Below, piece after piece: positions 333-41,178 of a DNA stretch of 52,329 nt. The notes beneath the pieces are model-generated. The model was not told where the DNA came from, did no database searches, and worked only from the letters and a program-made list of their open reading frames with translations. Position 1 is the stretch's first letter. Each line of letters begins with the position of its first letter. Made by a program: the position numbers and the translations under genes. Source of the stretch: Escherichia virus TH53; the sequence record MT446419.1, one strand, 5' to 3'.

Positions 333-2273
333 ATGACTACTATCACCACTCAAACTATCAAATCCGTTGTTCCTGCTATCACTGCTCTGGTATACCGTGC
401 CAAAGAGAAACAGAACTATATGCAGCCTCAGACTTGTGCTATTGCTGCCTTAGCCATCTTCAAGATGATGACGTCTTTCACTCGTGATGACGTTGTTCCT
501 GCCATCGCGATGGTTGAGCTGGCTTCTGCTTCTATTGCTGATGCCAACCGTTATAACAACGATTTGAAAGCAATGCACTATGTTGACCCAGCTATCAACC
601 TCATTGGTCTGGCTAAGCACTTTGGCTTCATCACCATGAACGAAGACAAGTCATTCCAACAAACTGATACATGGGTTGAGCTGGTTACAACTAAAGACAC
701 CGCAGTGCCATTCACTGAGCGTGTTACATCTGAATCTCGTCGCAAGCCTTTCGTTAAAGGTGGCAAAGTTAAGCCATCCAAGACTCTGAAAGCTGCAATC
801 GAATTCCTGCAAGATACTGAGTACCATGTGGAGACTGAGATGGTTCGCATCATCCAGTCCATGATTGAGCAACGTACTTATGGTGGCTTGCAGATGCCAG
901 AAGCAATCCAGACTGAACTCCATGTTTGGAACAATGCTGTAGCAATGATGAATCAGGATAAGCTGTATTCTGACTACTTTGCTGATAACCGTGGTCGTCT
1001 GTATCATGTAGCATGTGCTGGTCCTAACCCACAATCCTCTGACTTTGCTCGTTGCTTGTATTCTCACAATGTTGAGAACATCGTTAAAAAGTTTAACGAA
1101 GATGGTTCTACTACCATTGCATACAACATGTTCATGGCTGAGCTGGAAGATATTTCCGGTGGTGAATGGTGCAGTGCTAAGCGTTTAACTTATGTTGCTC
1201 AGAATCCAGCTGGTTCACTTGCTCGCATGATGAACATGCCTAAAGCTGAACGTCCTTCTAAGCCATTCACTTATGTTCGTCTGGCTCTGGATTGGTTCAA
1301 GTTTGAGACTACAGGTGAGTGTGATTCTCGTGTAGGCTTCGGCTTAGATGCTAAATGTTCTGGTACTCAATATCTGGCATTCATTGCTGGTAACATGGAA
1401 ATGGCTCGTGCAACAGGTCTGGTTGATTCTGAGACTAAAGCATCTGACCCATACCAGTTATCTCTTCGTGAACTGTTGAAGTTATTGGACCGTTCTTCAA
1501 TGAAGCCATCTCCTGAAATTATGGATGAATTCTTGAATCCGAAAGCTGGTCGTAAGTTTATCAAAACTCCATACATGGCTATCCAATATGGTGGTGGTAA
1601 AGCTGCATTGACTGGTTCTTCTGACTTCATTAGCTACATGACAGAAGCGCTCCAGATTCCTATGGAGAAAGCTGAGGCATTTGCTGAACTGTGTGTAGAA
1701 GCAATCCATAACGCATTGGGTGCTAAGATTAACATGTTCATTGAGAAGGCTGCTGATGCTGCATACAACCGTTGTGTTGAACTTGGTAAAGAGTACATCA
1801 CATACCGTCACACTGATGGTCAGGTTGTAATGAAGCCTTGCTTCCCATCTCGTGAAATCTGTGAGGCATTCAGCATTCGTGTTGACTCTCAAACTCGTGT
1901 TATCTTTGGCCAGATTCAGGAGAATAAGCCTTGGACCATTCGTGAATCCAATCCAACTAAAGAAGAATTCAAGCGTACTTTCGTTGTTAACTACATTCAA
2001 GGTATTGACGCATTGGTTGCTCGTACTGTTGCAGTTAAGGCTAAAGAAGCTGGTCTTCGTGGCTTCACTTCAATCCACGATTGTTTCCGTTGCTGCTTAG
2101 CTGATGCTCCACGCATGATGGAAGTTATTCGTGCAGCATATGTTGAAATCTTCGTAACCAACAATCAATTCGAGAATCTGTCTAAGCAACTTGGTGGCAT
2201 TCAGATGTATCATGAGAACATCGTAACCGAAGAGCTTCTGATGAGCGAACACGCTTACTACTTCTGTCAATAA
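333..2273 (+). CDS. single-subunit T7-like DNA-dependent RNA polymerase, short 646-aa form
   Basis: Seen: motif B-like RKFIKTPYMAIQYGGGK (T7 RSVTKRSVMTLAYGS) and motif C-like SIHDCFRC (T7 HDSFGT). Inference: about 240 aa shorter than T7 RNAP, so most of the N-terminal domain is absent. Confidence 0.85.
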   Translation: MTTITTQTIKSVVPAITALVYRAKEKQNYMQPQTCAIAALAIFKMMTSFTRDDVVPAIAMVELASASIADANRYNNDLKAMHYVDPAINLIGLAKHFGFITMNEDKSFQQTDTWVELVTTKDTAVPFTERVTSESRRKPFVKGGKVKPSKTLKAAIEFLQDTEYHVETEMVRIIQSMIEQRTYGGLQMPEAIQTELHVWNNAVAMMNQDKLYSDYFADNRGRLYHVACAGPNPQSSDFARCLYSHNVENIVKKFNEDGSTTIAYNMFMAELEDISGGEWCSAKRLTYVAQNPAGSLARMMNMPKAERPSKPFTYVRLALDWFKFETTGECDSRVGFGLDAKCSGTQYLAFIAGNMEMARATGLVDSETKASDPYQLSLRELLKLLDRSSMKPSPEIMDEFLNPKAGRKFIKTPYMAIQYGGGKAALTGSSDFISYMTEALQIPMEKAEAFAELCVEAIHNALGAKINMFIEKAADAAYNRCVELGKEYITYRHTDGQVVMKPCFPSREICEAFSIRVDSQTRVIFGQIQENKPWTIRESNPTKEEFKRTFVVNYIQGIDALVARTVAVKAKEAGLRGFTSIHDCFRCCLADAPRMMEVIRAAYVEIFVTNNQFENLSKQLGGIQMYHENIVTEELLMSEHAYYFCQ

Positions 2274-3880: not shown

Positions 3881-3922
3881 TGTATTGGGGGGGAGTAAAC
3901 CCTCCAAATTTGGAGAGCAGAA

Positions 3923-5354: not shown

Positions 5355-5615
5355 ATGGCTACTAGAACAGGCATGATGATTGTCCCAAGCCGTAATAACT
5401 CTTTAAGCGGCTTTACACCATATAAAATCTACGAAGTGATTTCTGGCACTGGTGAAGCAAACCTGTCAGAAGTTGCTTTGAAGTTGGGCCGTATGGTCCA
5501 CTCCGAAATCTCCTGTAACGTAGTTGATGATGAAGGTAAAATCCGTTTTGTAACAATGGATTTCTTTCGTGAATTTAACCTCAAATCTGAATTAGGAGTT
5601 CTGTACCATGAATGA
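5355..5615 (+). CDS. hypothetical protein
   Basis: AGGAG RBS 6 nt upstream of ATG. Confidence 0.55.
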   Translation: MATRTGMMIVPSRNNSLSGFTPYKIYEVISGTGEANLSEVALKLGRMVHSEISCNVVDDEGKIRFVTMDFFREFNLKSELGVLYHE

Positions 5616-5790
5616 GGATGATGTTGTTTGCCCAAAGTGTGGCAGCAATAACGTAGACCATGTAACACACGAAGCAGTGGGAATGTATGGTCCCGTAGTT
5701 CTGGACAGTGCATTCTGTGTAGATTGTGGTTTAAACATTTATCGTGGAAAACTTATAGACAATAGTGGGAATATCCCGCCAAAAGGATAA
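5608..5790 (+). CDS. zinc-ribbon protein
   Basis: Two CxxC pairs (CPKCG ... CVDCG). Confidence 0.5.
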   Translation: MNEDDVVCPKCGSNNVDHVTHEAVGMYGPVVLDSAFCVDCGLNIYRGKLIDNSGNIPPKG

Positions 5791-5792
5791 TC

Positions 5793-6020
5793 ATGAAATT
5801 TAAATGTGTTGCTTCAACCAAAGATTATGTTCCAGTTGGCTTCATCGTTGAAGGTGAAGCTATATCACCTTTGGAATTTAAAGTGACCAAATCGGCTGAG
5901 GATGTTTCTCCAGCATTTCGTAAAGGTGCTGTCGTTCCTATGAATGGTGCATTCTGGACATGGCAGCGTGACCATGAAGCAGAATTTGCAGATATTTGTG
6001 AACAAGGTTTATTACAATGA
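5793..6020 (+). CDS. hypothetical protein, paralog A
   Basis: Starts MKFKCVASTKDY; shares the KFKCV-ST N-terminus and a W-x-W pattern with the next ORF. Confidence 0.5.
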   Translation: MKFKCVASTKDYVPVGFIVEGEAISPLEFKVTKSAEDVSPAFRKGAVVPMNGAFWTWQRDHEAEFADICEQGLLQ

Positions 6021-6247
6021 CAAAGTTTAAATGTGTGAAATCGACCTCTTCATCTGAGTATTCTCCGAAGGTTGGAGATATTATTGAGGGAGAGCTTGTA
6101 ACTATTAAAGACGAGGATGGAGTGCAGACTCGCATAAACATCACAGAAGACAGTGACCGCAGAACTTCCTATGGCGCCCCATATTGGTCTGCGGGAGAGA
6201 GCGTTCCCTTGGAAGGTAGTGTCTGGTACTGGGAAGAAATTGAATAA
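6017..6247 (+). CDS. hypothetical protein, paralog B
   Basis: Starts MTKFKCVKSTSS; ATGA overlap with paralog A. Confidence 0.5.
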   Translation: MTKFKCVKSTSSSEYSPKVGDIIEGELVTIKDEDGVQTRINITEDSDRRTSYGAPYWSAGESVPLEGSVWYWEEIE

Positions 6248-6310
6248 TTTCCTCAACCACTTTTGTAATGAGAGTGGTTGCTGAATATTATTAATTAACT
6301 TGGAGAATTT

Positions 6311-6601
6311 ATGAAACAGCGTACTCGTTTACAACGTGACCCAGCCACAGGTCGCTTGTTACCAGCATATTTGAAGGTTGGTGACTTAGTTTACACTCGT
6401 GACTTTGCTTTTGACATTTGCCCAAGCAAAGCGTATGAAGTTCTTGCCACCAGCTTGTCTGGTCCTAAAGTGATATTTGGTGCTCTTGAGCCAATCCAGT
6501 TAACCGGAACTCAGTTTGTCATCAAAGATGAATCTGGTTGCAATCGCATCTTCAATCTTGAAGGTGGTTTATCCAAATGGGAGAAGGTGAAGCGTGGGTA
6601 A
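6311..6601 (+). CDS. hypothetical protein
   Basis: GGAG RBS 7 nt upstream. Confidence 0.5.
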   Translation: MKQRTRLQRDPATGRLLPAYLKVGDLVYTRDFAFDICPSKAYEVLATSLSGPKVIFGALEPIQLTGTQFVIKDESGCNRIFNLEGGLSKWEKVKRG

Positions 6602-31333: not shown

Positions 31334-31807
31334 ATGCCAAAGCAAGATTGGTCTATTAATACTGGTGAAGCATATGCAGGTGAACAATACGGCCTGGCTA
31401 CCACCAACTCCCAGCGCCTGACTTACGTTGCCGAAGAAGAAATGGCAAACTTTGGTCTGGCTGTTGTTCAAGGCACGGCATCCAATCAGGTTAAGCCTGG
31501 TATTGAATCCGACGGCACTGTTCTGGGCATTACTATGCGCCAGATTAACATCGAATCTGCCACTCGTCCTGGCGACGGCACTGTTGCAATTAAAGTTGGC
31601 TGGCCTCTGGGTGTTATGCTGTCTGGCCCAATCATGGTCAAACTGAAAACCGCAATCACCGACAAGAACATTGGCGTATCCACTAAAGGTGAATTTGGTG
31701 GCGTTGGTGCTGGGTACACTAAGGCAACCAACCTGACTGCCCTGCGTTATCCGGCTTCCGCTGGTGATGTTGTTCCGGTCATGATTAACGTAGTCCCAAA
31801 GCCGTAA
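31334..31807 (+). CDS. head-associated structural protein (candidate decoration protein), short form
   Basis: Strong RBS directly upstream of the major capsid gene; ends 5 nt after a CCCAAAG slippery site. Confidence 0.55.
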   Translation: MPKQDWSINTGEAYAGEQYGLATTNSQRLTYVAEEEMANFGLAVVQGTASNQVKPGIESDGTVLGITMRQINIESATRPGDGTVAIKVGWPLGVMLSGPIMVKLKTAITDKNIGVSTKGEFGGVGAGYTKATNLTALRYPASAGDVVPVMINVVPKP

Positions 31808-32100
31808 CGCCACCTCCAGCTCCTACAGTATCTGCTGTAGCAGGAGTTGTAACTGCTGACGCATCTGTATCTGATGCTACTGTAACTGTGGACAAGCTGT
31901 TTAAGTTTGAGAACTCTACAGCAACAGACTATAACTTCGCTGTTACACCTCCCGTGACTGGTGTTTCCGTGGCGGCAAACGGCACTGTGACTGTCCTGAA
32001 TGAGACAACCACAGATACTTCTGCGACAATCAAGGCAACAAATAAAACAGCATCTGGCGTAACTGCAACCAAAGAAATTACCATTACGCCGAAGGCTTAA
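31334..32100 (+). CDS. predicted -1 frameshift fusion adding a Pro/Thr linker and Ig-like domain
   Basis: Seen: slippery heptamer C-CCA-AAG at 31795-31801; -1 frame open from 31789 to 32100 encoding TPPPAPTVS... and a beta-rich T/V/A segment. Confidence 0.45.
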
Positions 32101-34908: not shown

Positions 34909-36357
34909 ATGGCAATTCCAATTTCCGATATCATCCAGGTCAACATTGCGGTATCTCCTAACGCTGTTGCCGTGGAAGGTTTTGGTCCGCTCTTGTTCTT
35001 GAGCAAGCAGTTTGTTCCAGCACCAGGCGAACGTGTTCCTGTTCGTCAGTATTCCAGCATGGCTGCTGTTTCTGCCGATTTCCCATCTGGTGAAATCTAC
35101 CAGGCTGCTTTGGCATGGTACTCTCAGAAACCGACTCCGAAGTATTTCCTTGTGGGTGCTATCACTCATGAAGATGTTACTCCGGCAACTCCAGGCACTG
35201 TTACTGCATCTGCTGCCGCAACCCTGGAAACTATCACTGCGCTGACTAATGGTGTGTTGTCTATTAACGTTGATGGCGTAGACCGTTCTACGGCTCCAAT
35301 CAACTTCTCTTCGGCCTCTAACTTTGATGCCGCTGCCTCTATGGCAAACGCTGCATTTGTTGCTGCTGGCATTCCCGTAACCATGTCCAACAAGACTGGC
35401 ACCTTTAAGGTCGTTGCCAAGTCCGAAGGCTCTAACTCCATTATTGGCGATGTTTACGGCTCTGCTGCTCCAGCATTTAAACTTGATGCAGATTCAAGTC
35501 CGGTGTATGTGCATGGTACTGATGAAGTGTCTGTAGGCACAGACCTGAATGCAATCCTGAACTCAACGTTCAACTTCTTCTTCGTTGCAATCGACCGCAA
35601 ATATCGTGGCAGTGCTGCCGGTAATGTTCAGATGACTGTTGCTAAGTGGGCAGAAGCAAATGAGAAGGTGTTTGGCTGGGCTGACAGTGATAAACAGATT
35701 CTGGTTGCTGGTGCTGAATCTAGCTTCAAGCGAGCTAAAGAGCAGAACCTGCAGCGTACCCTGCTGGTATATGATGCCTCTGACAATGGTGACGAGTATC
35801 CGGAGATTTCTATCCTGGGCCGTGCATCTACTGTCAACTTCAACGTTGCAAACTCTTCACTCGTTCTGGCATTTAAACAAGGTCCGGCTATCAAGACTGC
35901 TGACCTGTCCCCGAACCAGCTCGCTGCACTTGAGCGTGTAAATGGTAACGCATTCATCAACGTTGGTGGGAACACTATGTTCTACAACGGCAAGATGGCT
36001 GACGGCACTTGGTTCGATACCGTTCAGGGTGTATCTTGGCTGACCTCTAAAGTTCGTGCCAACGTGTTCAACCTGTTCTACACTTCTACGACCAAGATTC
36101 CTTGGACCGATACTGGTGTGGCTCTGGTAAACCAACAGGTTACTCTGGCTCTTGAACTGGCTGTGACCAATGGTCTGATTGCTCCAGGTTACGACAATGA
36201 AGGCAACTTCTATCCGGATGGCTACAAAGTCTTGTCTACCGACTTGGCTCTGATGCAATCTCAGAAAGGTGCTCGTATCTGGGAAGGTACTTCCTTCATT
36301 GCGATTGGTTCTGGTGCACTGCAAGGTGCAGTTATCTCCGGCAACTTCGTTCAGTAA
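34909..36357 (+). CDS. tail sheath protein (putative)
   Basis: Inference from order: 482-aa protein followed by a 151-aa tube-sized protein, a frameshifted chaperone and the tape measure. Confidence 0.6.
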   Translation: MAIPISDIIQVNIAVSPNAVAVEGFGPLLFLSKQFVPAPGERVPVRQYSSMAAVSADFPSGEIYQAALAWYSQKPTPKYFLVGAITHEDVTPATPGTVTASAAATLETITALTNGVLSINVDGVDRSTAPINFSSASNFDAAASMANAAFVAAGIPVTMSNKTGTFKVVAKSEGSNSIIGDVYGSAAPAFKLDADSSPVYVHGTDEVSVGTDLNAILNSTFNFFFVAIDRKYRGSAAGNVQMTVAKWAEANEKVFGWADSDKQILVAGAESSFKRAKEQNLQRTLLVYDASDNGDEYPEISILGRASTVNFNVANSSLVLAFKQGPAIKTADLSPNQLAALERVNGNAFINVGGNTMFYNGKMADGTWFDTVQGVSWLTSKVRANVFNLFYTSTTKIPWTDTGVALVNQQVTLALELAVTNGLIAPGYDNEGNFYPDGYKVLSTDLALMQSQKGARIWEGTSFIAIGSGALQGAVISGNFVQ

Positions 36358-36367
36358 GGTGCGATAA

Positions 36368-36823
36368 GTGAAACAATATTCTTTCTATAATACCGACCTC
36401 ATTATCGACGGTGCTCGTGTAGATGGTTTTACTTCTGGTAACTCCATCATCACTGCTCGTCGTAACGCACCTCAACATCTGCCTGTTATTGACGCGTATG
36501 GTAAGTTGGCTGTAGCTACTACGGCGGACTTATCCGGTACTATTACTTTCCCGCTTCTGCAAACCGCAGACTGGAACGAAATCCTGTACAGCCGTGCTCA
36601 GTTAACTCAGGCAACTGGCCTGTCTGGTAACAAATCTCTGTGGCAACCGCTCCAGATTCAGATTGTTGACAAGATGGGTGATGTGCTGGTCAATGGTGTA
36701 AACGGCGCTATCTTGCAGCAACCTGCAATTCAGCGTGGTGTGTCCTTCACGTCTAACGTGTGGTCTATCTTTGTAGAGCGCCTCCAGATTAAGACTGGCT
36801 CTTATCCGGAAATTGGCGTTTAA
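36368..36823 (+). CDS. tail tube protein (putative, GTG start)
   Basis: Size and position between sheath and chaperone. Confidence 0.55.
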   Translation: MKQYSFYNTDLIIDGARVDGFTSGNSIITARRNAPQHLPVIDAYGKLAVATTADLSGTITFPLLQTADWNEILYSRAQLTQATGLSGNKSLWQPLQIQIVDKMGDVLVNGVNGAILQQPAIQRGVSFTSNVWSIFVERLQIKTGSYPEIGV

Positions 36824-36834
36824 TTGGAGTAAGT

Positions 36835-37293
36835 ATGGCTTGTGAATTGCTTCAACGTGAATTCACAAACTCCAAAGGCGAAACAGTGTTAGTCGTTGTT
36901 CGACAATTGTCGGCTTCGGCTGCACTGTCTCTTCACGCGGAGTTGGTAAGCAAGTTAGGCTCACGAGTATTTCCATTCATCGAAGGTAAATATAACTTCG
37001 CTGATATTATATACTTGATGCAGCAAGTAGAGCATACCGTATTCACAGAATTGTTTAAGCGTGTTATCAGCATGCACTCGTCCATAGACGGACAAGAAAT
37101 CAAACCTGCATTATATGATATGCAGTTCAATGGCGAATTGATGTTGTCTTGCCATGTCTTTGCTTTCGTGCTCGAAGCAAACTTCCTTGATTTTTTCAAG
37201 CAAGGGCTCGAAATCAACGAACAGAGACGATTGGAGGCGGAGGAAGCATCCAAGCTGGCAGAGCAGAAGAATTCGAGTCCGGAGACAGTTTAG
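36835..37293 (+). CDS. tail assembly chaperone, short form
   Basis: Position before the tape measure; TTTTTTC slippery site inside the gene. Confidence 0.6.
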   Translation: MACELLQREFTNSKGETVLVVVRQLSASAALSLHAELVSKLGSRVFPFIEGKYNFADIIYLMQQVEHTVFTELFKRVISMHSSIDGQEIKPALYDMQFNGELMLSCHVFAFVLEANFLDFFKQGLEINEQRRLEAEEASKLAEQKNSSPETV

Positions 37294-37469
37294 TATCCCT
37301 GTTCCCCGACATAAAATATTTTCTGCATCGTCCTATAATCGAAGACAGTTCTCTCTGCAAGTTACGTGAATTGCAAGATGGAACCTATTCGATTATGGAC
37401 TTATTGCTATTCCACGACATTCTCGATTTGCGTAAGAAACTCGAACCAGTAGATGAAGACAATGGCTAA
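36835..37469 (+). CDS. tail assembly chaperone, predicted -1 frameshift long form
   Basis: Seen: slippery heptamer T-TTT-TTC at 37191-37197; the -1 frame opens exactly there and runs to 37469. Confidence 0.5.
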
Positions 37470-40400
37470 TCAAAAAGATTTAATGAAGTTGAGTGTTAAT
37501 GAGTTAATTGCATTAGGCTCTCAAAGCGGTCTGACTTTCCATGCTGGTATGAAGAAGTCGCACATGGTTCAACAACTTAGTGCGAGCGCTGCTTCGGGAT
37601 GGCTGGATACAAATGCAGAATTAATGGGTGGGTCGTTTGAAGATGATAGTTTAATTACTGAATCTCTGGGCGACTCTTCCATGATTTCAGACGCTGCCCA
37701 CATTGCACAAGTGCTCTCAAGTGCTGGCTACACAGAAGCATTTCATGCAGCAATGAATGGTCCATCACACCATGTAGAAGCTGTTCACGCATACATGGAA
37801 AGGCTTGGTGTCAACACAGACGATGTGTGGATGCACATGCCGAAGCCAAATCCGAACCTACCGCAGGGTAGCTTCAACATGCTTAATGCCTATATGCGAG
37901 ATACTTTGCAAGGGCATCAAGATATTATGCCAGAAATCCCAGGCCATTATGCTGGCGATATTATGGCTGAATACTCCACCAACCGTGGAAACATTGCTGA
38001 CTCATACAACTACATGGCCCACATGTATGTTGACCGTGAACAATACAGCAATCATGAACAATACGCAAGAGACATTAGTCGAGTTGCCAAACGTCTGGAA
38101 CAAGAGTTACCCGCAGCCTTTAAGGAAGTTGGGTATACCTCGGCCTCTAATGTAGGAAATAAATCGGCTCCACATATTTCTTACATGGATGCACTTCCTC
38201 AGATTGGTTCTCCTTCAATTGTTTCTGGCATTGCACATCCTCGTGCACCTCTTAACGCATCTGGACTCCCACTTGGTTCTTATGGTTCTGGCATAAATCC
38301 AGAATACTCTCTCACTGCATCATTAACTGGTGGCACTGGTTGGAGCGAACCAAGCAAGGCTTTGTATTCTTCCATTAGCGAAGCTGTTAAATCTGCTGCC
38401 AAAGTTTATTCCGGCTCCAAAGGGATGATGAATACTCGTCACGAAGTATCTGACCGTGACATGATTATGGATAGTGCAACTCGCTATACAGATTTGGAAG
38501 AAGCCAGAAGCGGGTACGAAAACCTTCGTTCTGAACTTGCAGATGAACCAGCTTATTCTGCATCGAGTGTTCGAGCTATTCTCGAAAACACTTATGACAA
38601 AATGGATGCCGAACCTGTTCGCATTCCAAAGATGAAGGGAGCTTCACAGCGAGTCGAAAAAGATTCGCAATCAACATCTACAGATTTTACAGCACAACTT
38701 GGAGAGGCCACCAATTGGAACTCTGCAAGAATGCGTCGTGAGGAAATTGCGATTGCAAATATGGATAGTGCTGGATTCCGTGATGTATCTGACTATGGTA
38801 CAGGACGTTCCGAGTCTCCCGTCAGATTCCATGACTTAGAACAGGGTAGCCAAGAGTGGCTAGACTTCCGTAAAAATTATGACATAACTGGCTCAACTGT
38901 TGGAACCTTCTTAGGAAACAACCCGTATACCCGACCTTGGGCGGGAATGATTGACAAGATTGGTTTATCTCGTAGCAAAGAGCACAGCGATTTCACTAAG
39001 AAGATGTTCGCTGATGGTCACAGGACGGAAGAAGAAGCACGCGCTCGTGTTGGTAAGGAATTTGGATTCGATATCAAACAAACTGGCGCTATAACAAATG
39101 ACAACTATCCCGCCTTCATGTATTCTCCTGATGGTCTTATTGGTGATGATGCCATTTGGGAGCACAAGAATCCGCAAAGGGCTGGTAAGTTTGCTGACCT
39201 TCTTAAAGGCGACCATCCAGATTACATGGACCAAATTCAATTTGGTATGCACGTTTCTGGCCGTTCTCGTGCTTTGTTCTCACAAACCATCAACGACGAA
39301 ACACGTTCACAATGGATTGAGAAGGACGAAGGATGGTACGAGAGAAACCGAAATCGTCTTGATTCTGTGCTTGGCCGTCTTGATGCTGGGCGAGAGTTTG
39401 TTAGAAACAATGCTGGGCTAGGCCGAGAAGAACTGATTGCTGGTGCAAGAAGTGCAATGACTGGTGATGGTATCTGGAAGGATATTCGTCAAAGGTCAAC
39501 TCGCGGCTACTCTGCCGTTGCTGGAACTCCAGAAGACCCATTTATTGGTTCACGTTCTTCATACAATCCAAAGGCATCTTATTCAGACTACCAGCCAAAC
39601 TTTGTAATGCACGAGCAAAACTTTCCAGCAACCACAGGAAATGGTGATACTGGAAATGACTCGATGGCATTGTCTGTTAAGAAAGGTATCCTTGCTGCCC
39701 AGGAAGAAAACAGGCAGAAGGGTATCGGTGCAGATGCAGACTTTAATGGCAAAGCCGACTCAATGGGCTGGGACCGTGAAAGATTTGATGCTGCCAATGG
39801 CGGTGGATATTCTGGCGGTGGCGGTGGTCGTGGCGGTAACTTCACAAGTGGTGGCAACTACTATGATGACTACGGTCGCATGGGTGGTTCACTAGCTGCT
39901 GGTATTGCTGGTGGCAGCATTGGTTCAGCAACCAACGGAGTTATGCAAGCATTGATGGCAACTCCTGCTGGACGTATGGCAGCTGTAGGCATTGGTGCTA
40001 TTCAGATTGGCAATGAAGCTGCTGAATACATGAATGACTTTATCGGCAACTCGCTTGATGCTGGTGTTATGAATCCTAATGAATATTCTTCCATGTCGCA
40101 AGGCTTGGAGATGTTAGGACTCAACTCACAACAAGCGGCACGTCTGAATCAAACCACACATAGTGCCTACAACACTATGCTTAACGGCGACCCCAGCGCC
40201 GCTGTGAACATCGTTCGCGGCAGTAGGGGATTGCTCACCATAGGTGATATTCGTGCGACAGGCGGCGACCCTGTGGCCCTGGCTCGCATCATGCAGGAAA
40301 GGGGCAAGGAGCGTGGCTGGAGTCAGGCCCGTATCGCAGGTGCTGCCGAAATGGCTGGCCTGAATGGGATGGCGAGAGCCTACGACCGCACGGAATACAG

Positions 40401-41178
40401 CCATGAGCAAGCTGGTTCGGTGGTAGAAGCGGGTAGAAACTCTGACTTTGCCGAAGGTATGGTTCAGTCAGAAATGTTGCAGGGGAGCCGCGCACGCGTG
40501 CTGCCTAGCTACAACGTGCCACAAAGTGTCCTATCTAATGGCGCCCCAATCTTCGAAGCCGGAAGTGCTGCACTTGATGGTGCTCGTACTGGATTCAATC
40601 AGGCCCGTGAGTTTGCTGGAAGTGTTTACGACTTTATCGCTCAGGAAGAATCCGGTGGTCGTGAATACAATAAAGATGGTTCTCGTGTAACAAGTCGCAC
40701 TGGTGCTCGTGGAATAATGCAAATTCTTCCTTCGACTGCCCGTGACCCAGGATTTGGAATCAAGCCATCTGATGGAACTCCAGAAGATGATGCACGAGTT
40801 GGTCGCGAATACTATGACGCAATGTACAAGCGTTATGGCGACCACGAAAAGGCAATGGCTGCTTACACCGATGGCCCTGGCACTGTAGATGAAGCCATTA
40901 AAGATAAAGGATTAGGTTGGCTTACTGCTGTTCCTAAACAGGCACAGAATCGCGTCAAAGCATTCCGTGAATGGTCCAAGTCTTCTCAATCTTTGGAAGA
41001 GGGTGCTACAGGGTTTACTCGCAATGGAATGTCTTATGGTCAAACCCAAACTGTTGTCAATGTTAAGATTGATGCCAAGGTCAACAACCAGGTTGCTTCT
41101 GCTACAGTTGCAGTTCCTGGGGGCCAGACTGTAACTCAACAAATGAACATGAACAACGGTGCACAACAAAGACGTTGA
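37453..41178 (+). CDS. tail tape measure protein with lytic transglycosylase (SLT) domain
   Basis: Seen: 1241 aa after the chaperone; SLT-like block EESGGREYNKDGSRVTSRTGARGIMQILPSTA near nt 40630-40760; Gly-rich segment near nt 39780-39940. Confidence 0.7.
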   Translation: MKTMANQKDLMKLSVNELIALGSQSGLTFHAGMKKSHMVQQLSASAASGWLDTNAELMGGSFEDDSLITESLGDSSMISDAAHIAQVLSSAGYTEAFHAAMNGPSHHVEAVHAYMERLGVNTDDVWMHMPKPNPNLPQGSFNMLNAYMRDTLQGHQDIMPEIPGHYAGDIMAEYSTNRGNIADSYNYMAHMYVDREQYSNHEQYARDISRVAKRLEQELPAAFKEVGYTSASNVGNKSAPHISYMDALPQIGSPSIVSGIAHPRAPLNASGLPLGSYGSGINPEYSLTASLTGGTGWSEPSKALYSSISEAVKSAAKVYSGSKGMMNTRHEVSDRDMIMDSATRYTDLEEARSGYENLRSELADEPAYSASSVRAILENTYDKMDAEPVRIPKMKGASQRVEKDSQSTSTDFTAQLGEATNWNSARMRREEIAIANMDSAGFRDVSDYGTGRSESPVRFHDLEQGSQEWLDFRKNYDITGSTVGTFLGNNPYTRPWAGMIDKIGLSRSKEHSDFTKKMFADGHRTEEEARARVGKEFGFDIKQTGAITNDNYPAFMYSPDGLIGDDAIWEHKNPQRAGKFADLLKGDHPDYMDQIQFGMHVSGRSRALFSQTINDETRSQWIEKDEGWYERNRNRLDSVLGRLDAGREFVRNNAGLGREELIAGARSAMTGDGIWKDIRQRSTRGYSAVAGTPEDPFIGSRSSYNPKASYSDYQPNFVMHEQNFPATTGNGDTGNDSMALSVKKGILAAQEENRQKGIGADADFNGKADSMGWDRERFDAANGGGYSGGGGGRGGNFTSGGNYYDDYGRMGGSLAAGIAGGSIGSATNGVMQALMATPAGRMAAVGIGAIQIGNEAAEYMNDFIGNSLDAGVMNPNEYSSMSQGLEMLGLNSQQAARLNQTTHSAYNTMLNGDPSAAVNIVRGSRGLLTIGDIRATGGDPVALARIMQERGKERGWSQARIAGAAEMAGLNGMARAYDRTEYSHEQAGSVVEAGRNSDFAEGMVQSEMLQGSRARVLPSYNVPQSVLSNGAPIFEAGSAALDGARTGFNQAREFAGSVYDFIAQEESGGREYNKDGSRVTSRTGARGIMQILPSTARDPGFGIKPSDGTPEDDARVGREYYDAMYKRYGDHEKAMAAYTDGPGTVDEAIKDKGLGWLTAVPKQAQNRVKAFREWSKSSQSLEEGATGFTRNGMSYGQTQTVVNVKIDAKVNNQVASATVAVPGGQTVTQQMNMNNGAQQRR

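Follow-up and report, generated by a model that had tools for sequence, protein, structure and literature searches.

Since the work of Levin et al. 1993 and Xu et al. 2004, frameshifting in tail assembly chaperones has been part of the textbooks. In phage lambda, gpG and gpGT (Levin, Hendrix & Casjens 1993; Xu, Hendrix & Duda 2004, 2013, 2014, to the extent that PMC5009743 summarises them) are encoded by two overlapping frames flanked by the tail tube/major tail gene and, downstream, the tape measure gene, with the stop of the second frame overlapping the tape measure gene start, and Escherichia virus TH53 has the same layout. The expected role, which is tape measure chaperoning and tube protein recruitment (PMC5009743), would by analogy be the same in both phages. 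Lambda, unlike TH53, belongs to the siphoviruses, and no sequence similarity between the two systems is detectable; in TH53 the N-terminal part belongs to Phage_TAC_15 and the extension is DUF6889-like. The heptamers also differ, being G_GGA_AAG in lambda and T_TTT_TTC in TH53. Phage P2 resembles TH53 in having a contractile tail and, reportedly, a chaperone pair between the tube gene and the tape measure gene, and it is said to make gpE and gpE+E′ by a -1 slip on a T-rich heptamer (TTTTTTG), in work attributed to Christie et al. in 2002. The protein families are different in this case too, and no P2 E or E′ Pfam match was found in TH53.

An analogous argument to the one made here was lately published for the Vandenendeviridae (Pakpunavirus) and Andersonviridae, in which TAC-N and TAC-NC are accompanied by a conserved GTTTTT (PMC12846349). 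These phages, like TH53, are myoviruses with a related tail module (the TH53 tube protein weakly matches KPP10_Orf10), and they share with the Chaseviridae both a downstream ORF that is routinely mis-annotated as a separate hypothetical protein and a -1 frame that is open across the ‘intergenic’ stretch in all genomes. Both groups have a T-run as slip site, and one member of the Chaseviridae, Erwinia phage Faunus, carries exactly GTTTTT(C). The Chaseviridae are nevertheless another family, and the full canonical T_TTT_TTC is present in 34 of 35 of their loci. T4-like phages make a short and a long chaperone from two genes (Vladimirov, Gautam & Davidson 2022, as far as PMC10274946 relates that work). 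In T4-like phages and in a metagenomic contig described below (L017), as in TH53, a short chaperone is accompanied by a long one with an extra C-terminal domain; there the two are separate genes, whereas TH53 has one N-terminal coding region and two frames. The HK97 tail assembly chaperone structure (PDB 2ob9) also counts among the closest known systems. Within the searchable literature, outside which most subscription papers lie, searches on the Chaseviridae and phiEcoM-GJ1 and on DUF6889 brought up no earlier account of this frameshift.

Two overlapping frames in the tail module of TH53

The window analysed here is the whole stretch of 52,329 nucleotides from Escherichia virus TH53 (MT446419.1), a member of the Chaseviridae, genus Carltongylesvirus, that is 99.5% identical to ST32 over 36300-37700. 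The relevant features of its tail module are as follows.

34909..36357, + strand: tail sheath gene, 482 aa (phrog_205 ‘tail sheath’ 1.7e-99; Pfam DUF3383 1.2e-64)
36368..36823, + strand: putative tail tube gene, 151 aa, GTG start (phrog_280 virion structural protein 3.3e-32)
36835..37293, + strand: short chaperone form (G-like / TAC-N), 152 aa, frame 0
37188..37190, + strand: TGA in the -1 frame, directly 5′ of the heptamer, which fixes the earliest productive shift point
37191..37197, + strand: slippery heptamer T_TTT_TTC, in-frame X_XXY_YYZ, with UUU as P-site and UUC as A-site codon
37197..37469, + strand: -1-frame extension (T-like / TAC-C), 90 codons plus TAA (phrog_4364 2.2e-17)
36835-37197 joined to 37197-37466, + strand: predicted long form, 211 aa, frame 0 then frame -1
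37198..37293, + strand: dual-coding overlap, 96 nt; frame 0 is the acidic tail of the short form and frame -1 a linker
37462..41178, + strand: tape-measure-position gene, 1238 aa from ATG 37462 or 1241 aa from ATG 37453

The 152-aa protein matches Pfam Phage_TAC_15 (PF21822) with 67.1 bits (E 2.9e-18, profile positions 5-124 of 127), passing the curated family cut-off of 22 bits, and matches PHROG 11820 ‘tail assembly chaperone’ over its full length at 2.5e-75. The Pfam match and the position of the gene between the sheath and tube genes and the tape-measure-position gene bear out the original prediction, made from the letters alone, that this is a tail assembly chaperone. That prediction had also taken the frameshift to support the sheath, tube and tape measure assignments of the neighbouring genes. 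For the sheath the phrog_205 match upholds the name, and the tube and tape measure labels come mainly from position and from the annotations of others. The gene at the tube position matches Pfam KPP10_Orf10 at 3e-4, below cut-off, and is called tail tube in the Mangalitsa and 4HA13 records; its assignment is mainly positional. The protein at the tape measure position matches phrog_19855 and carries Pfam YqaJ (aa 468-604) and SLT (aa 1060-1152) domains; other records name the 1241-aa protein variously as tape measure, tail fiber or virion protein, with ‘tape measure’ used in those of Mangalitsa, 4HA13 and PP101. The order of sheath, tube position, chaperone with -1 ORF and tape-measure position is the same in 16 relatives.

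PDB entries listed alongside the 152-aa protein are 5ir0 (unknown function, from a Vibrio PICI-like element), 3klu (the uncharacterised protein yqbN) and 3fgx (uncharacterised, Bacillus stearothermophilus). A Foldseek search of the PDB gave no significant match, a sequence search of the PDB with the 211-aa fusion as query returned just a spurious phosphatase match, and an AF2 model of the fusion computed without an alignment was unusable (pLDDT 39).

At the slip site the 152-aa ORF reads ...AAC TTC CTT GAT TTT TTC AAG CAA GGG..., with GAT at 37189-91, TTT at 37192-94 and TTC at 37195-97 as the frame-0 codons of the heptamer. The -1 frame contains many stops upstream of this point, the last of which, the TGA at 37188-37190, abuts the heptamer, and from the heptamer it is open for 92 codons to the TAA at 37467-37469. 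This TAA sits 5 nt inside the next ORF when that is counted from ATG 37462 and 14 nt inside when it is counted from ATG 37453; the start of the tape-measure-position gene thus overlaps the stop of the extension (ATGGCTAA, with ATG 37462 inside). By frame arithmetic the product of a -1 slip is 211 aa, 121 aa from frame 0 and 90 aa from frame -1. The opening of the -1 frame exactly at TTTTTTC, the 90-aa extension stopping just inside the next gene and the product of roughly 211 aa had all been predicted from the sequence, and each agrees with these coordinates.

The stretch in which a shift would be productive is 103 nt long, and the heptamer is the sole Z_ZZN slippery motif within it. Over the 96-nt overlap the -1 reading is Arg-rich and then a Gly-rich linker (QARARNQRTETIGGGGS...), and both readings of the overlap are poorly conserved linkers. 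As in a G/GT gene pair, two overlapping ORFs (36835-37293, and the -1 ORF to 37469) lie between the tube and tape measure positions, and a slippery sequence, T_TTT_TTC at 37191-37197, lies in the overlap in a register that permits re-pairing.

Conservation of the heptamer and the -1 ORF

When the 211-aa fusion was used as a tblastn query, 85 phage records matched it with both parts, each in its own frame. We compared TH53 with 16 fetched isolates covering both Chaseviridae subfamilies and eight host genera (Escherichia, Erwinia, Pectobacterium, Yersinia, Proteus, Aeromonas, Vibrio and Shewanella). TTTTTTC was found at the homologous codons in 16 of these 17 isolates (TH53 and 15 relatives), the exception being Erwinia phage Faunus, which has GTTTTTC and deviates from the strict X_XXY_YYZ, and the -1 ORF spans 91-115 codons in all 17. 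Additionally, TTTTTTC is present in 18/18 uncultured viral contigs, with a -1 ORF of 87-117 codons, at protein identities down to 31%. Over the whole set of 35 loci, TTTTTTC stands at 34 and GTTTTTC at one, and each locus possesses a -1 ORF, with lengths of 87-117 codons. In all genomes the open -1 frame reaches as far back as the heptamer, and in five it opens precisely there; its stop mostly adjoins the start of the next gene across the 35 loci. The slip site and the second-frame ORF are therefore kept in diverged relatives, in both Chaseviridae subfamilies and in uncultured relatives, and the original description of the locus as a conserved G/GT-type arrangement stands.

We also analysed codon usage at the site in 14 non-redundant phages. 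The two Phe codons of the heptamer are TTT in 14/14 and TTC in 14/14, compared with 58 TTT to 97 TTC among the other Phe codons of the same genes. The base immediately 5′ of the Phe codons, a third codon position, is T in 13 of the 14 despite a varying residue (D, A or S), and nearly all invariant-residue columns outside the heptamer vary synonymously. T_TTC is the only slippery tetramer common to all permissive windows. In these alignments the heptamer is evidently under purifying selection at the nucleotide level.

A conserved domain in the -1 frame

Beyond the linker, the -1 frame encodes a domain of about 50 aa that is present in all 35 loci.

37299..37442, + strand: conserved core of the -1-frame domain, DUF6889-like, long-form aa 156-203, LFPDIKYFLHRPIIEDSSLCKLRELQDGTYSIMDLLLFHDILDLRKKL

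The consensus of this domain in relatives is LFPDIxYFLHRPxIEDSSLCxLxELQDGTYSxxDLLxFHDILDLRxxL. Its invariant residues span both subfamilies and their codons vary synonymously, a pattern by which the alignments establish purifying selection on the -1-frame domain. The TH53 extension itself matches Pfam DUF6889 (PF21829) with 20.5-21.2 bits (E 2.5e-4 to 4e-4), below the 23.9 cut-off, over profile positions 1-25 of 40.

An exhaustive phmmer search with the 90-aa extension against 1.84 billion representative proteins returned mostly short called ORFs. It also recovered, at a library-wide E of 8.4e-4, a metagenomic protein of 194 aa (P0075) that contains Phage_TAC_15 (aa 9-114, 5e-11) and DUF6889 (aa 153-187, 2.5e-12) in one frame. 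The DUF6889 domain of this protein scores 46.8 bits, over the cut-off, and the TH53 -1 domain is 48% identical to it over 46 aa. We conclude from this in-frame fusion that the TAC_15 and DUF6889 domains belong to one polypeptide. The gene for the fusion lies on a 52-kb contig (L017), directly after a 171-aa TAC_15-only gene, and the two TAC_15 N-domains share 31% identity over 84 residues; the TAC_15-only gene followed by the TAC_15+DUF6889 gene is a two-gene version of the short/long pair. The fusion surfaced solely in the phmmer search that used the extension alone. A search of 5.8 billion proteins with the TH53 fusion found no fused form and 46 short forms (135-159 aa, 50-67% query cover). 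In the phmmer search the extension also had matches, each over several stretches, in three long proteins (1552-2012 aa), and these are likely to be low-complexity matches to its Gly/Ala-rich linker.

A probable programmed frameshift and its mechanism

Taking the comparisons together, we consider it very likely that a programmed -1 frameshift yields a short and a long tail assembly chaperone from one gene. Tandem -1 slippage of two Phe-tRNAs on U_UUU_UUC is the best-supported mechanism, and the classes that shift readily in E. coli reporters include UUN A-site codons as well as all-pyrimidine heptamers (PMC4066793). Most ribosomes would translate 36835..37293 into an abundant short chaperone of 152 aa. 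A minority would slip back by one base while the P site holds UUU and the A site UUC (37192-37197), allowing both Phe-tRNAs to re-pair with UUU UUU, and would then read the -1 frame from CAA (37197) to TAA (37467-37469). The resulting 211-aa long form would have its first 121 residues in common with the short form, followed by a flexible Arg/Gly linker and the DUF6889-like C-terminal domain of about 50 aa. By analogy with lambda gpG/gpGT, the shared N-terminal part may coat the tape-measure-position protein and the extra C-terminal domain may recruit the tube protein. The two proteins of a G/GT pair share an N-terminus, are made at a fixed ratio and are both required for tail assembly; here the short:long ratio would follow from the slip rate, and both chaperone forms would be absent from the virion. 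Here we infer the ribosomal nature of the slip, its frequency and the binding partners, and the roles are assigned by analogy.

A search for stimulatory elements gave one candidate.

37204..37280, + strand: candidate stimulatory helix, GGGCUCGAA (37204-37212) with UUCGAGUCC (37272-37280), closing a branched domain

The candidate helix has 9 bp and begins 6 nt 3′ of the heptamer, which is the canonical spacing, and it appears in the minimum-energy fold of TH53 and of about half of 20 relatives. The z-score of the fold is -1.4 in TH53, and across the 20 folds the scores are mostly above -1.6, non-significant and inconsistent. Paired cells make up 82.5% of the stem, and double changes occur at two of its pairs, a weakly suggestive result for a stem derived from one sequence. 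RNAalifold, run on each subfamily separately, found no conserved structure, Rfam had no match at the frameshift region, and inspection by eye of the 36 nt upstream of the heptamer found no internal Shine-Dalgarno stimulator of the dnaX type. A stimulator is not obligatory in chaperone genes, where frameshifts, that of lambda among them, proceed at a few per cent without one, so that a missing stimulatory element poses no problem for the frameshift proposed here.

Alternative explanations

A coincidence of heptamer and open -1 frame without biological role has to be considered first of all within the genome itself. We scanned 126 mechanical ORFs of at least 80 aa in the window and found 64 in-frame heptamers, 6 of which have a -1 extension of at least 40 codons beyond the stop; 4 of these 6 long extensions are explained by a larger overlapping ORF in the same frame. 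In-frame heptamers are thus common, and on these counts the evidence from one genome alone is moderate. Three further points raise the site well above that level. It is the sole Z_ZZN motif of the productive stretch. TTTTTT occurs once in the 52,329 bases, at 37191, and AAAAAA not at all, compared with expectations of 21 and 28 from base composition and of 27 and 57 from a first-order Markov model, and in the distant relative BUCT696 the T6 of the chaperone gene is likewise the sole T6 within a coding region in 50 kb. The third point, the comparative data, is decisive against chance: TTTTTTC is kept at the same codons in all loci except that of Faunus at protein identities as low as 31%, fixed synonymous sites are confined to the heptamer, the -1 frame encodes a conserved protein domain, and the heptamer is the sole T6 of the genome. 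Chance is effectively refuted by these comparisons, and we assign it a negligible probability.

Another reading accepts that the -1 ORF is a gene and makes it an independently initiated small protein, the heptamer being incidental. Public annotation lends itself to this: several records annotate a ‘hypothetical protein’ of 37-56 aa at this place (RefSeq ST32 gp65, PM1_050, PYps3T gp69, Myduc gp50 and pAh6-C gp9), PHROGs holds a family for the -1 ORF (phrog_4364), and most library matches to the -1 domain are short called ORFs. The annotated starts differ between records, however, that of ST32 being CTG, and many records have no annotation there; none of the annotated relative records inspected contains a joined CDS, and they either leave 170-190 nt as ‘intergenic’ or call a short hypothetical protein there whose start is implausible. 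In 16 of 17 phages the -1 frame offers no ATG, GTG or TTG ahead of the conserved domain, the one exception is a TTG one codon before the motif without a Shine-Dalgarno sequence, and a Shine-Dalgarno sequence for the -1 ORF was found in 0/17. The second frame therefore lacks a translation start of its own, as the second frame of a G/GT pair does. The opening of the -1 frame as far as the heptamer in every genome, and exactly at it in five, the selection that acts on the heptamer at the nucleotide level and the occurrence of a natural in-frame fusion also speak against two separate genes, and we regard that arrangement as very improbable.

The same 211-aa protein could also arise by transcriptional slippage, if a T7-like or host RNA polymerase added one U on the T6. 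TH53 encodes a T7-like RNA polymerase (333..2273, PF00940), all large ORFs of the window are on one strand, and homopolymer runs are strongly depleted genome-wide with the heptamer as the only T6, as the lone T6 inside a gene is that of the chaperone in BUCT696. One extra U gives exactly the identical protein, and sequence alone can therefore not tell a ribosomal from a polymerase slip. Other observations point away from the polymerase. Efficient polymerase slippage in bacteria typically wants runs of about 8-9 or more, of which the T6 here and the T5 of Faunus (GTTTTTC) fall short, and Faunus with its T5 has yet conserved the whole arrangement. The run always lies in the X_XXY_YYZ register, and C occupies the third base of the second Phe codon in 14/14 phages, which blocks growth of the run to T7 or more and is the opposite of the selection expected for polymerase slippage. 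The related families, moreover, conserve GTTTTT (PMC12846349). We thus judge transcriptional slippage to be unlikely, and retain the programmed ribosomal frameshift as the preferred reading.

Possible coupling to the tape-measure-position gene

It is conceivable, if doubtful, that the frameshift also meters the tape-measure-position protein in this clade. Shine-Dalgarno pairing at ATG 37462/37453 is -1.0 to -1.2 kcal/mol, compared with -4 to -8.6 for most neighbouring genes, and the stop of the short form lies about 160-170 nt upstream of the tape-measure-position start. If downstream translation occurred mainly through termination at 37467-37469 and re-initiation, the tape measure would be supplied by frameshifted ribosomes alone, and the dosages of long chaperone and tape measure would be tied together. 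The Shine-Dalgarno sequence is also weak in Mangalitsa, PM1, PYps3T, 4HA13 and Myduc, whereas the Aeromonas, Vibrio and Shewanella relatives have AAGGAG at that place. With the weak sequence confined to part of the relatives, coupling, if real, would be clade-specific.

A second candidate site in the cement-protein gene

Elsewhere in the window, the cement-protein gene (31334..31807) ends with an in-frame C_CCA_AAG at 31795, the most efficient heptamer in E. coli (PMC4066793). A 99-codon -1 extension follows this heptamer and fills the gap up to the capsid gene. It is made up of a Pro-rich linker plus a beta-rich domain, the latter annotated as ‘Ig domain containing protein’ in RefSeq ST32 and Y2. 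Pfam gave no match for the extension, and C_CCA_AAG is kept in 7/7 genomes checked. From its sequence, this site is probably a second programmed frameshift.

Implications for the Chaseviridae

The chaperone frameshift appears to be real and ordinary. It would not surprise a specialist, and it leaves the view of phage tail assembly and recoding unchanged; its use lies in annotation and in naming DUF6889. DUF6889 / phrog_4364 would gain a role as the frameshift-encoded C-terminal domain of Phage_TAC_15 chaperones, and the tape measure name of an unusual 1241-aa protein with nuclease-like YqaJ and SLT domains is backed by the arrangement. The site adds a family-wide U_UUU_UUC example to the catalogue of bacterial -1 sites, and genomes purged of homopolymers that encode a T7-like polymerase would be convenient for separating ribosomal from polymerase slippage. 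The value is mainly one of annotation: about a hundred public Chaseviridae genomes match both parts in two frames, and the correct annotation would be a joined CDS with ribosomal slippage at T_TTT_TTC.

Homopolymer runs and the chaperone heptamer

Homopolymer runs are strongly depleted across all 52,329 nt of the window. From base composition, 21 T6 and 28 A6 runs would be expected; we counted no A6 run and a single T6, which is the slippery heptamer TTTTTTC of the tail assembly chaperone gene (37191-37197). T5 occurs only at 77, 144, 3549, and 11294, and the longest homopolymer of the window is a lone G7 in the early region (3887-3893). In the related phage BUCT696 (L024, positions 1-50000), A6 is also absent and T6 occurs five times, four times between genes and once as the chaperone heptamer. 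Both phages encode a T7-like single-subunit RNA polymerase, found by Pfam at 333..2273 in the window and annotated as gp73 in the BUCT696 record. One might speculate that the purge of homopolymers is tied to polymerase slippage or termination.

Translation and content of the gene in tape-measure position

The stop of the chaperone −1 extension and the start of the gene in tape-measure position overlap. Comparing window positions 37440-37470 with the homologous sites in five relatives (L002, L011-L013, and L015), we found that Shine-Dalgarno pairing at this start is almost nil in the Escherichia/Yersinia/Pectobacterium/Proteus clade, at −1.0 to −1.9 kcal/mol compared with −2.9 to −6.1 kcal/mol for the chaperone gene of the same phages. 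The Aeromonas, Vibrio, and Shewanella relatives carry a strong AAGGAG at the start of the gene. It is possible that translation of the gene is coupled to ribosomes that have frameshifted.

Two domains were detected in the encoded protein (37453-41178, 1241 aa):

aa 468-604, YqaJ-like (lambda-exonuclease-type) nuclease domain, 2e-13
aa 1060-1152, SLT lytic transglycosylase domain, 4e-13

A tape measure with an internal nuclease-like domain is unusual, and public records variously name this protein tail fiber, exonuclease, endonuclease, tail tube initiator, and tape measure.

Chaperone genes and records of relatives

An uncultured contig (L017, ENA ERZ25070720:ctg115445l, 5493-6585) carries a gene with only the chaperone N-terminal domain, TAC_15, followed by a gene with both TAC_15 and DUF6889, which is a two-gene chaperone arrangement without a frameshift. 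A Dit-like gene directly follows the pair, and no obvious tape measure gene was seen between them. The chaperone gene of Aeromonas phage pAh6-C (L006, NC_025459.1, approximately 660-1112) is split between two frames, with the N-terminus (MACKDMNRVI...) in one, the remainder in another, and the break near codon 40. The likeliest cause of this break is an indel error made in sequencing the deposited genome, and it would explain why the chaperone in RefSeq is truncated, at 110 aa. A further record, PP952070.1 (H19, H41), is deposited as 'Staphylococcus phage Pel53' with Staphylococcus hyicus as host and has 95% DNA identity to the tail region of the window's coliphage; probably the host or the name was assigned wrongly, or a contaminant is involved.

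A candidate second −1 frameshift in the cement-protein gene

Another in-frame heptamer lies at the 3′ end of the cement-protein gene, which reads ...GTC CCA AAG CCG TAA:

31334..31807, cement-protein gene (Pfam Phage_cement)
31795-31801, heptamer C_CCA_AAG, in frame in the cement-protein gene

Beyond this heptamer the −1 frame stays open for 99 codons, to a TAA at 32098-32100, filling an otherwise empty gap upstream of the major capsid gene with a Pro/Ala/Thr linker and a beta-rich domain of approximately 70 aa. In the RefSeq records of ST32 and Y2, this extension has an entry of its own under the name 'Ig domain containing protein'. All seven genomes checked (the window, ST32, Y2, 4HA13, Faunus, phiA050, and PYps3T) keep the heptamer, with the extension shortened to 54 codons in PYps3T; PM1, PP101, Fifi44, and Myduc yielded no match to the extension. 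The cement-protein gene probably contains a second −1 frameshift, which would place an Ig-like domain on the capsid as a decoration.
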